A DNA stretch of 39,792 nucleotides from a virus (Duplodnaviria > Heunggongvirae > Uroviricota > Caudoviricetes): positions 1 through 39,792 of IMG/VR virus record IMGVR_UViG_2703718791_000008; one strand, given 5' to 3'. Within the stretch, counting starts at the first letter, position 1, and each line of letters opens with the position of its first letter. The position numbers were made by a program. Positions 35,458 through 38,400 of this stretch are shown piece after piece.

Positions 35458-38400
35458 TGACACGAAATAAACGTCCGACAAGCACAGCAGCCAATACCTA
35501 AAAACAATATTTTGCCGAATATTCAGTTCGTTATAAAGGTTAAGCATTGAGTATACCAACTGTCTCTCTATGGAATGAGATGGGGTTAATCCCCCCAATA
35601 GACGAGGCTGATCCTACAAGCCATACTCGTTCCCCATACAAAATGGATATAGTACGCTTTGTTAGTACTTTTTCGCTTAGCCCTGCAAGGATTAAAATCC
35701 TTAAGGGTTTTCTTAACTTTCGTGTTTCACTCACTCAAGCAGGGCTAGTTGAAGGTTTTCAGTGGGTAGATGGAAGCTTCACAGAACATATTGAACTTAT
35801 TGAAAAAAGGCCACCGAATGATGTCGATGTTGTGACCTTTTTTCAATTCAGTAATGGCGATAATGATGCAATCGTAATCGGTAGAAAGCCAGAGCTATTT
35901 GATCATGATTTTGTTAAGAAGGAGTTTTTCGTAGATTCCTACTTCCAAGAACTTAATCTACCAAGTCATGAGCTTGTTGAAATGACTGTATACTGGTACA
36001 GTATGTGGGCACATAGACGCGATCTGTCGTGGAAGGGATTTATCCAAATCCCGTTAAACCCACAACTTGATGTTGTGGCAATGACTATACTTAATTCGGC
36101 TACTACTGAGGGGGTCAAACAATGAATCGTAATGATTATGTTTTCGCTCTCAGTGAGCGCGAGCAAATAAGTAATCTATTAAAAAATATGCCAACAAGTC
36201 ATTCTATTAGCCGAAAAAGCTTAGAAGACCGTCTGGAGAAAGTTGAGCGATTAATTTCACAAGCTGACGTTCGAGAACATGAACCTACGCATGCTGTGTT
36301 AACTTTTAGAGGCCCAACAGTAGTTGGCACGCATGGCATTTCAGCAGTATTTGGAACAAAAGCTATATCTTGTTTTAATGATGCAATAGCTTACTTGGCA
36401 ACCTCTTTCAATGGCCCACTTCCTGCATCAGGCAAGATACCAAACATAGAAAATAATCATCTCATGATTACCGCGTCAGCCCGTGGTTCTTTCGGATTTG
36501 TACTTGAAGAGTTTAGACCTGATGCTCCTCTTGAATTCGATGAAGAAACCCCAGTAGCAAAAGCTATTAATAAGGCCAGAAAAATATTTCAGGCAAGCTT
36601 GGATAATGATGATGAAGAATTGTCTGATGCTATAGAAAACTTAGACTCTCGGGCCTTAGATAAAATCAGAGCATTCATTCATTATCTGCATGAAAATAAA
36701 ACAGTTTTTACACTTAAAAGCCAAGGTTTTAGCATCGTTTTTAGAGAGCCAAAACAGCTTGAAGCTGTATATCAACATCTCAGCAATGATAACATTCAGC
36801 AGGAAAAAATTATTGAGAACGTTATATTTTTGGGAACTCTTCCTAACAAGCGCCAATGTGAATTTATAGTTTTAGGTAACACTGATATCAGAACCGCTAG
36901 CATTGACAAAGCTGTAGATGACCCAGATATTATAAACAAGCACTTAGGAAGCGTTGCAACAGCCACGTTCCTGAAAAAAACTGTTGGTAAGGGCAAGCCC
37001 AGATACACTCTGGTTTCTCGACCTCAATGGGATATTAAATCAATCGATTAGAATGAGCCCCTTCAGCCCGGCCACCGCGCCGGGTTTTTACTGCCTGTCG
37101 CTCCCCACAAGCGAAGAAGCCGAACGCATCTCTTCAATACTGAAGGTTTACGTTCGGCCTCAATAATGCAAAAGCATTCAGCATAATGTCCAACTCCCCA
37201 GTCCGACATTGATGCTGTTTAACCAGAGCCTCCAAAAGGAAGCCCTTGTTAAGGTACACAATATTTGCGATGTAACCTTAGCGCGTCTGGTACATTTTTT
37301 CAAGCGGTTGTAGGGCTGCCGCTAATATGAGAAAACACAGATGTCTACATACAATTTGAATGGCCAATTCGATCGAGAAGTTCATGTGAATGCCTATGAA
37401 CGGATAAGGCATGGAAATCTTGAACATGTGTGTGAGCATTATCGCTCAAGGCCACATCGCTGATAATCAAATCTCAACCCGGCCTCAGCGCCGGGTTTTC
37501 TTTGCCTCACGCTCCCCCTCACCCAAGAACACATAACCAATTGTATTTATTTGAAAATTAATAGATACAACTCACTAAACATAGCAATTCAGATCTCTCG
37601 ATCACCTTCCCAATCCACACAACCATGCAAAAAATAAATCTATATAAAAAACATACAGATAACCATCTGCGGTGATAAATTATCTCTGGCGGTGTTGACA
37701 TGCATACCACTAGCGGTGATACTAAACACATCAGCAGGACGCTGGTAGCCAAACGGAACAGATTGGCAGGCACTTTAACATTGATGGGATTGTCCCGCCG
37801 AAATGCGGGAACCAAAGAGTAGTTGGCTTTGGGGTGACGTGAAGTGCAGCTGCACGACGGCAACCGGAAGATAAGCACCCGGCGCGTCACCGCCAAAGTC
37901 AATCATCGGAGGTCAACATGACAGTAGTCATTACATATCTGGCTGACGATAACGCCAGAAATCGCCGCAGAGCACGCAGACAGGCTCAACGTGAACAGGA
38001 AATGCAAGAGCAGCGACTGGCGCGAAAAATTGCGCTAAAGCTCTCTGGTTGCGTCAGAGCAGATAAAGCAGCATCACTCGGAAGCCTTCGCTGCAAGAAG
38101 GCAGAAGAAGTCGAGCGTAAACAGAACCGTATTTACTACCGCAAGCCACGCAGTGAAATGGGTGTGACTTGTGTTGGTCGCCAGAAAATGAAATTAGGCA
38201 GCAAACCACTTATTTGAGGTGATATATGACAATATCATGGAGCGTACCTTTTCCTGAATCAGAAACTGAACATGATGGAATGCCTGTTTTCTGGAGATTC
38301 CAGGCGACAGTTGAAGAAGATGGAATCAAAATATTCGCACTTCAATATATAGCTTTTCATCAGACAGAGCATTATGCATGGTTGGTTCCTGCGCATTGGA

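Follow-up and report, generated by a model that had tools for sequence, protein, structure and literature searches.

A predicted DUF6932-family nucleotidyltransferase gene and its partner gene take the place of rexAB in a lambda-type immunity region

The window analysed here comprises positions 1–39,792 of the virus record IMGVR_UViG_2703718791_000008 (IMG/VR, Caudoviricetes), and its lambda-type immunity region contains two overlapping genes, here named A and B, downstream of the cI repressor gene (Table 1). In this part of the window, the minus strand carries genes for a Phage_rep_O protein, a DnaB-type helicase, CII and Cro, and the plus strand those for cI, A, B and an N-like protein. Comparison with the lambda genome (NC_001416) by blastn showed 93.3% identity over positions 34000–35460, corresponding to lambda O′-cII-cro-oR-cI and ending exactly at the cI stop codon, no lambda homology between the cI stop and t_imm, and a return of lambda identity (88.8%) at 37476, at t_imm after the rexB stop, from where it continued through oL3–oL1. 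Because the homology stops and returns at these two points, A and B are seen to replace rexA-rexB. The G+C content of the cassette is 0.407, compared to 0.452–0.469 for its flanks (34000–35460 and 37476–38300) and 0.515 for the O/DnaB genes, and such a low value is also found for other phage cargo genes.

The open reading frame (ORF) of gene A and its TTG start are annotated identically in Escherichia coli CE10 by RefSeq/PGAP, with the label 'DUF6932 family protein'. A consensus IPxWN (residues 5–10), located ahead of the first internal ATG, is kept in homologs, which supports the TTG start and also the residue numbering used in a preliminary description of this sequence. That description had tentatively pointed to a motif in A loosely resembling the signature of Pol-beta superfamily nucleotidyltransferases (NTases), and had quoted a string that is indeed present in A; its 21 residues reach V96 (35834) rather than residue 94, which is a trivial mismatch, and residues 76–94 read GSFTEHIELIEKRPPNDVD in translation (35772–35828). 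The pattern h-G-[GS]-x9-16-[DE]-h-[DE]-h had a single match in the 24,953 aa of six-frame, stop-to-stop stretches of at least 60 aa in the window; the scan gave the count alone, and this lone match was taken to be the motif of A. The resemblance was borne out by conservation, as G76, S77, D92 and D94 are invariant in 44 A homologs (down to ~37% identity), and these four residues and D130 are present in 100% of 141 unique A homologs (28–99% identity) drawn from about 200 loci; the invariance of these key residues argues that the motif is not a chance occurrence. D130, which did not feature in the preliminary description, is located in a V-D-S/A-Y strand. Other residues conserved in 100% of the 141 homologs are R48, R59, G70, Q72, W73, E83, R88, Y149, W150, H156, W162 and G164, and the N-terminal extension of A keeps P16, P17, P30 and Y31 at 95% or more, with R28-S29 nearly invariant in the 44-sequence alignment. 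The spacer between GS and DxD had been described as longer and more helical than usual. It is longer, albeit marginally, with 14 residues versus a classical spacing that is said to be 9–13 residues, and versus 10 residues in two genuine minimal nucleotidyltransferases (MNTs) of related loci, but it is not more helical, since the structural model has one four-residue helix (82–85) in this part.

The AlphaFold2 model of A, made with the 44-sequence alignment, has a pLDDT of 90 and a pTM of 0.87, and consists of helix 46–64, strand 69–75, the G76-S77 turn, helix 82–85, strand 93–100, helices 107–127, strand 129–135, helix 140–154, strand 166–169 and helix 172–191, which as predicted is the canonical element order of the Pol-beta superfamily. 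The sequence W73-V-D-G76-S77 closes predicted strand 69–75 and provides the h-G-[GS] turn, D92-V-D94-V opens strand 93–100 and provides the [DE]-h-[DE]-h element at a spacing one residue past the classical range, and V-D130-S is on strand 129–135, which follows the DxD strand in the model, as in NTases with a third carboxylate. When the model was searched for a Pol-beta fold, as had been proposed in the preliminary description, it was found to resemble solved NTases, with a striking enrichment of NTases at low scores.

Sequence searches placed A in the Pfam family DUF6932 (PF22014; 93.6 bits with a cut-off of 27, model positions 3–141 of 142), as was the case for 44/44 homologs. The PADLOC family PDC-M63A was matched by A (PDLC04744, E 2.2e-10) and likewise by all 44 homologs (best E 1e-16), and A also matches phrog_9194. 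DUF6932 was the sole family found, with zero matches to the Pfam NTase families among the 44 homologs at E-values up to 10, and HMMER detected no similarity to NTP_transf_2, Polbeta or AbiEii in these homologs. Aligning a 142-sequence A alignment with hhalign to an MNT profile of only two sequences, built from the MNT-like ORFs of L070 and L162–164 (collected loci are cited by L number), gave a probability of 0.6% and an E-value of 0.1. Matches of the A profile to pentatricopeptide repeats in a profile search of the PDB were rejected as spurious, since they were due to a 'DVVTY' stretch. Ten longer A homologs (245–357 aa) contain no extra Pfam domain, and are therefore probably mis-called starts rather than fusions. 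There was no second DUF6932 subfamily in a relaxed hidden Markov model scan of all collected loci, and the best 150 of 2,007 HMMER matches and the best 120 of 1,263 matches from a profile word search represent one subfamily. The family is catalogued but uncharacterised, and a literature search found no papers naming DUF6932, PF22014, WP_024201976 or WP_001081279. We conclude that A is very likely to be a divergent NTase of the Pol-beta fold with an intact predicted active site, and the NTase reading, tentative when first made, is thus supported and sharpened.

The protein encoded by B matched phrog_18731 only, and had no match in Pfam, NCBIfam or PADLOC. Its AlphaFold model (pLDDT 86) contains a helical hairpin (residues 3–46), a beta-alpha-beta-beta unit with a GSFGF hairpin between predicted strands 114–119 and 124–130, a helical region and, at about 225–297, a C-terminal barrel. 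The GSFGF motif is the most conserved element of B, with G122, S123, G125 and F126 at 100% and F124 at 98% in 140 unique B homologs with identities down to 20%. Foldseek comparison of B with the PDB gave nothing at E ≤0.001, and a sequence search of the PDB with the B profile gave no match; the structural matches obtained were confined to the C-terminal ~75 residues, which resemble small OB-like beta-barrels such as those of PriB, Teb1, LEF-3, RPA and the LysRS anticodon-binding domain, among others. Judged from the model, the barrel is probably an OB fold, and residues 223–309 have an isoelectric point of 8.8. Our scans of B showed no HEPN fold, Rx4-6H motif, nuclease, pore or other toxin signature, and no TIR, SAVED, CARF or STING domain. 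Over 19 residues, hydropathy peaks at 1.13 in A and at 1.16 in B, and these low values indicate that both proteins lack a transmembrane segment. Of the two, B is the faster to diverge, with a median identity to the protein in the window of 33%, versus 44% for A.

The two genes were nearly always found together. B is directly downstream of A on the same strand in 85/87 genome loci, the two exceptions being a contig end and a lone A, and also in 80/80 viral contigs; conversely, when loci with sufficient room were anchored on B, A was upstream in 36/36 loci from viruses and in 71/72 from metagenomes. Comparison by hhalign (E 1e-52 to 1e-60) showed that the genes 3′ of the DUF6932 genes of Proteus, Burkholderia and Bremerella, a planctomycete, encode homologs of B. 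A and B are thus almost certainly an obligate functional pair. The pair is present in Proteobacteria, Planctomycetota, Myxococcota, Chlorobia, Acidobacteriota and methanogenic archaea; one scan gave a minimum of 583 species-level genomes, while exhaustive HMMER searching gave 2,007 DUF6932 clusters at 50% identity, 498 of these at E 1e-30 or better. Homologs of A with 33–45% identity are located on a few plasmids, and both A and B were absent from 50,697 deposited phage genomes searched with megablast and tblastn. Lone A genes with intact GS, DxD and D residues were found in Cupriavidus (L081, 6875–7618) and on a Rhizobium plasmid (L207, 3375–4058), the latter with a putative insertion sequence transposase fragment directly downstream, and a lone B gene in L246 (2324–3277) is preceded by an ORF that was judged Mrr-like by eye from its sequence, without a family scan. 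The tolerance of lone, intact A genes argues against A being a constitutive toxin; the asymmetry between lone A and lone B genes was rejected as a test for the toxin, as there are too few uncoupled genes on either side.

A scan for terminators found none on the plus strand between cI and A, and a hairpin follows B. This suggests that A and B share the pRM transcript of cI, as rexAB does in lambda, and the two genes are most probably co-transcribed with cI in lysogens. The hairpin after B (37065–37090) has a predicted RNA fold of −15.5 kcal/mol, with the stem GCCCGGCC/GGCCGGGC followed by UUUUU; its fold statistics are weak (shuffle z-score −1.34) and it is missing from the terminator scan list, but it aligns both with lambda t_imm and with the hairpin located 3′ of B in CE10. 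Homology to the CE10 prophage stops at 37088, inside this hairpin. The cI-A-B arrangement was found at 99.8% identity in 8/5,426 complete E. coli genomes, such as the neonatal-meningitis strain CE10, whereas the spacer that separates this hairpin from t_imm is present at 95–99% identity in 234/5,426; in an O157:H7 prophage this spacer follows another cargo gene (173 aa, hypothetical, WP_001130059.1), which is downstream of a cI-like repressor gene. The window thus has two homologous t_imm-type hairpins (37065–37090 and 37476–37505; CCCGGCC-N5/6-GCCGGG-T run) at ~410 bp from each other, and these twin hairpins, combined with the sharp break at the cI stop codon, suggest that the cargo between the 3′ end of cI and t_imm is exchanged as a cassette through recombination. 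Rfam identified no RNA family in the cassette. A sigma-70-like site near the 3′ end of B (36903–36931, plus strand; TTGACA, 17 nt, GATATT; 10/12 matches) recalls lambda pLit within rexA, and may well be due to chance, as promoter-like sites were not clearly enriched over shuffled sequences.

Table 1. Positions of the A-B cassette, its parts and its surroundings; positions are those of the window, with the exception of the last row
Feature	Position	Strand	Description
cI repressor (lambda allele)	34747–35460	+	Pfam HTH_3 and Peptidase_S24; promoter-proximal in the presumed cI-A-B unit
Cassette replacing rexA-rexB	35461–37475	+	2,015 bp, versus 1,400 bp in lambda
Gene A	35547–36125	+	192 aa, TTG start; DUF6932 family, predicted Pol-beta-fold NTase
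Motif of A	35772–35834	+	G76-S77 (35772–35777), 14-residue spacer, D92-V-D94-V-V96 (35820–35834)
D130 codon of A	35934–35936	+	100% invariant; candidate third catalytic carboxylate, predicted strand 129–135
Gene B	36122–37051	+	309 aa; ATG start overlaps the A stop codon (ATGA, 4 nt)
GSFGF hairpin of B	36485–36499	+	Residues 122–126
C-terminal small beta-barrel of B	36788–37021	+	Residues ~223–300; basic
t_imm-like hairpin after B	37065–37090	+	U-run; presumed cI-A-B terminator, right end of the A-B module
Spacer separating the t_imm-like hairpins	37091–37475	+	~385 bp; outside the A-B module proper; short ORFs only
Lambda t_imm, then oL3–oL1/pL	37476–37742	+	88.8% lambda identity; terminator scan match 37476–37497, fold z-score −3.7
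L208 features	3579–5029 and 5039–7510		Positions in locus L208

The location next to a repressor gene is not restricted to the window, as in 31/80 viral contigs with A and B a cI-like repressor is encoded on their strand at most 1.5 kb upstream. Prophages of Proteus have the order cro / cI-DUF3024-A-B, and in those of Proteus mirabilis (L002–L005) a DUF3024 gene (5614–5949) separates the cI-like repressor gene from A and B, indicating that the repressor-adjacent slot can hold additional cargo. A second recurrent setting consists of Type I restriction-modification (R-M) loci, with R-M subunit genes within four genes on the same strand in 23/80 species-level loci (29%), usually in the order hsdM-hsdS-A-B-hsdR. 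Other neighbours encode YhcG/DUF1016 nucleases, YgjP-like peptidases, and Macro, Abi_C and Fic proteins. In four of the R-M-linked loci (L018, L051, L064 and L086) a Macro-domain gene is directly beside A-B, which may provide a link to ADP-ribose or nucleotide-adduct chemistry. On a Bradyrhizobium septentrionale plasmid (L208), A-B (A 35% identical) is located by genes for a ThiF family adenylyltransferase, a multiubiquitin-domain protein and a DUF6527 protein, which we read as a Bil-like ubiquitin-type defence cluster. Accessory anti-phage genes have precedents in both types of setting, namely RexAB, encoded next to the repressor gene, and PrrC, which is found within a Type I R-M operon.

Taken together, a role of A and B in conflict with phages or mobile elements is probable, and the pair, which forms an accessory cassette of two genes in a prophage with lambda immunity, may well be an anti-phage exclusion or abortive-infection module. 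In the mechanism we favour, A and B would be expressed together with the cI repressor in the lysogen, and A would be a catalytically competent NTase, using the predicted active site of G76-S77 and the carboxylate triad D92, D94 and D130. The barrel of B would bind a nucleic acid cue or substrate (single-stranded DNA or RNA, possibly tRNA), and A would transfer nucleotides onto that RNA or DNA, possibly at tRNA or DNA ends in the manner of MenT and AbiEii, or onto a protein target, and this transfer would arrest the infected cell or the invading phage. We tentatively prefer this division of tasks, with B as sensor or adaptor and A as effector, because B lacks a catalytic or toxin signature and diverges faster than A, because A is rich in invariant basic and aromatic residues beyond its catalytic core, and because lone intact A genes are tolerated. 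Rapid divergence, as displayed by B, is often a property of sensors. A wider proposal is that DUF6932-B forms a new two-component anti-phage system, phylogenetically very broad in covering both bacteria and archaea, in which a branch of Pol-beta NTases that had escaped recognition tags nucleic acid ends of phage or host, or makes an oligonucleotide that is read by the barrel, and which relatives of lambda use as a functional substitute for RexAB; this we regard as rather unlikely in its full extent.

Several known systems share features with A-B. Lambda RexA-RexB occupies the same slot, from the cI stop to t_imm, on the same strand as cI, and both pairs are two-gene cargo with presumed expression in lysogens. 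Unlike the membrane protein RexB, A and B lack a hydrophobic segment, and RexA is, to our knowledge, not an NTase. Homology of A-B to Rex was rejected, as there is no sequence similarity in blastn and no transmembrane segment, and the relationship is one of positional analogy rather than membership. The AbiEii and MenT proteins (DUF1814) are Pol-beta-fold NTases in two-gene abortive-infection modules, as predicted for A-B, and nucleotidylate tRNA acceptor ends; by analogy, a similar nucleotidylation of tRNA ends is a plausible activity for A alongside a nucleic acid-binding barrel in B. In AbiE and MenAT the antitoxin gene comes first, and this order is reversed in A-B, where B is downstream and A is preceded by cI (prophages) or by hsdS (R-M loci). 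Like PrrC, A-B can have same-strand hsd genes as neighbours, typically with hsdS upstream and hsdR downstream, which suggests, by analogy, that A-B at R-M loci provides a back-up defence coupled to R-M. PrrC is however a single protein combining an ABC-ATPase and an anticodon nuclease, without homology to A or B, and unlike PrrC, most A-B loci, including the one in the window, are not linked to R-M.

The closest relationship is with PDC-M63, a computational candidate of PADLOC, which has the A family in common with A-B, and PDC-M63AB is likewise a two-gene, prophage-borne system. Its second component differs, as 0/25 B homologs matched the PDC-M63B models at E-values up to 10, and PDC-M63 is thus a sister pairing in which the A family is combined with a different partner; because of this different partner, PADLOC would not call A-B. 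In the one study of it that our search located, deletion of PDC-M63AB from E. coli NILS69 gave no defence phenotype against 10 phages, a panel which the authors themselves call limited (bioRxiv 10.1101/2024.12.20.629700).

The first of the alternatives to B as sensor and A as effector is a type VII toxin-antitoxin system resembling MntA-HepT, in which B would be a growth-arresting effector that is silenced by A through covalent nucleotidylylation, for example of S123 or T117, and phage infection would lower the activity of A or the supply of NTPs, thus freeing B. In MNT-HEPN modules the NTase gene comes first and is overlapped by its partner gene, and A-B has the same order with overlapping codons; Type I R-M settings can likewise contain MNT-HEPN pairs, and L070 has a genuine MNT beside hsdS. 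An invariant S123 in the most conserved loop of B, a near-invariant T117, and the tolerance of lone A genes with intact active sites agree with this alternative as well. However, the HEPN partner of an MNT has an Rx4-6H motif, and B has neither the HEPN fold nor this motif, nor a nuclease, pore or toxin signature, and so falls outside the MNT-HEPN class. Most invariant residues of B are Gly or Phe, its 309 aa make it much larger than typical toxins, and a lone B gene exists (L246). The A protein also differs from MNTs, as it exceeds the MNTs of related loci (100 and 111 aa) by ~60–90 aa, and has a conserved N-terminal extension, a helical insert (107–127) and a C-terminal helix. We consider a type VII system unlikely.

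Somewhat less likely still is a function outside immunity, either as a selfish addiction or stabilisation module of mobile elements and R-M operons, or in nucleic acid processing or repair, such as 3′-end tailing, with some other benefit to prophage or host. The presence of A-B on varied mobile DNA (prophages, plasmids and R-M islands), the lack of a defence phenotype for the related PDC-M63AB, and loci without a recognised defence neighbour, such as that of Bremerella beside ilv genes (L008), are in line with such a function. Conversely, the occupation of the exclusion-system slot of lambda combined with repeated insertion between hsdS and hsdR is a classic signature of accessory anti-phage genes, for which PrrC is the precedent, and the 29% of R-M-linked loci, a raw share without a comparison to the background rate, looks high for a housekeeping function.

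We give a lower probability again to signalling, where A would make a nucleotide-derived ligand or short oligonucleotide, and binding of this product by the barrel would switch an effector function of B, either upon infection, as in CBASS, or through a constitutive inhibitory guard signal, as in Hailong or Panoptes. The pattern of swappable partners fits with signalling, but B has no recognisable effector domain or transmembrane segment, and A is far smaller than CD-NTases, with a marginal match to a PADLOC cyclase in 1/44 homologs (E 0.005). Likewise, A-B does not conform to the CBASS definition of a CD-NTase with a cGAS/DncV-like fold and C-terminal helical domain next to an effector gene. 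Finally, that A is a dead scaffold merely resembling an NTase, with a structural role for the motif, is very improbable given the invariant catalytic residues, since dead NTases usually lose a carboxylate or the GS, whereas all five residues are 100% invariant in 141 sequences spanning 28–99% identity, and A also keeps the kind of basic and aromatic residues that one would expect in a substrate pocket.

Two-gene conflict modules based on NTases are well established, and include MNT-HEPN, AbiE/MenT, CBASS and Hailong. New here is the combination of a predicted DUF6932 enzyme with the novel partner B in a widespread cassette, and its replacement of rexAB within a lambda immunity region, which allows for a direct comparison of lambda itself with a lysogen that has lambda immunity but carries A-B in place of rexAB. 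If active, A-B would bring a new combination of enzyme and partner to prokaryotic immunity, and the interval from cI to t_imm would be a slot in which defence genes can be exchanged, with conserved anchors for recombination at its borders.

Other features of the window were located outside the cassette. An N-like antiterminator gene (37918–38217, plus strand) encodes an arginine-rich protein of 99 aa that scores 20.9 bits with Pfam N_peptide, which is below the cut-off of 27.9, and is followed by an ORF of 156 aa (38226–38696, plus strand) without a Pfam family. The N region is of another type than the immunity region, because lambda homology ends at 37742. On the other side, the replication module (31665–33859, minus strand) combines a lambda-type O protein with a DnaB-type helicase in place of lambda P, and this pairing, with lambda homology starting only at 34000, indicates a mosaic structure around the immunity region. 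The prophage also has two adjacent tRNA genes on the minus strand (27189–27261 and 27270–27341; Rfam 61.5 and 55.3 bits), and an Acyl_transf_3 protein of 382 aa is encoded at 667–1815 on the plus strand, opposite to the adjacent ORFs; it could be an O-antigen acetyltransferase, and as such the product of a lysogenic-conversion gene.

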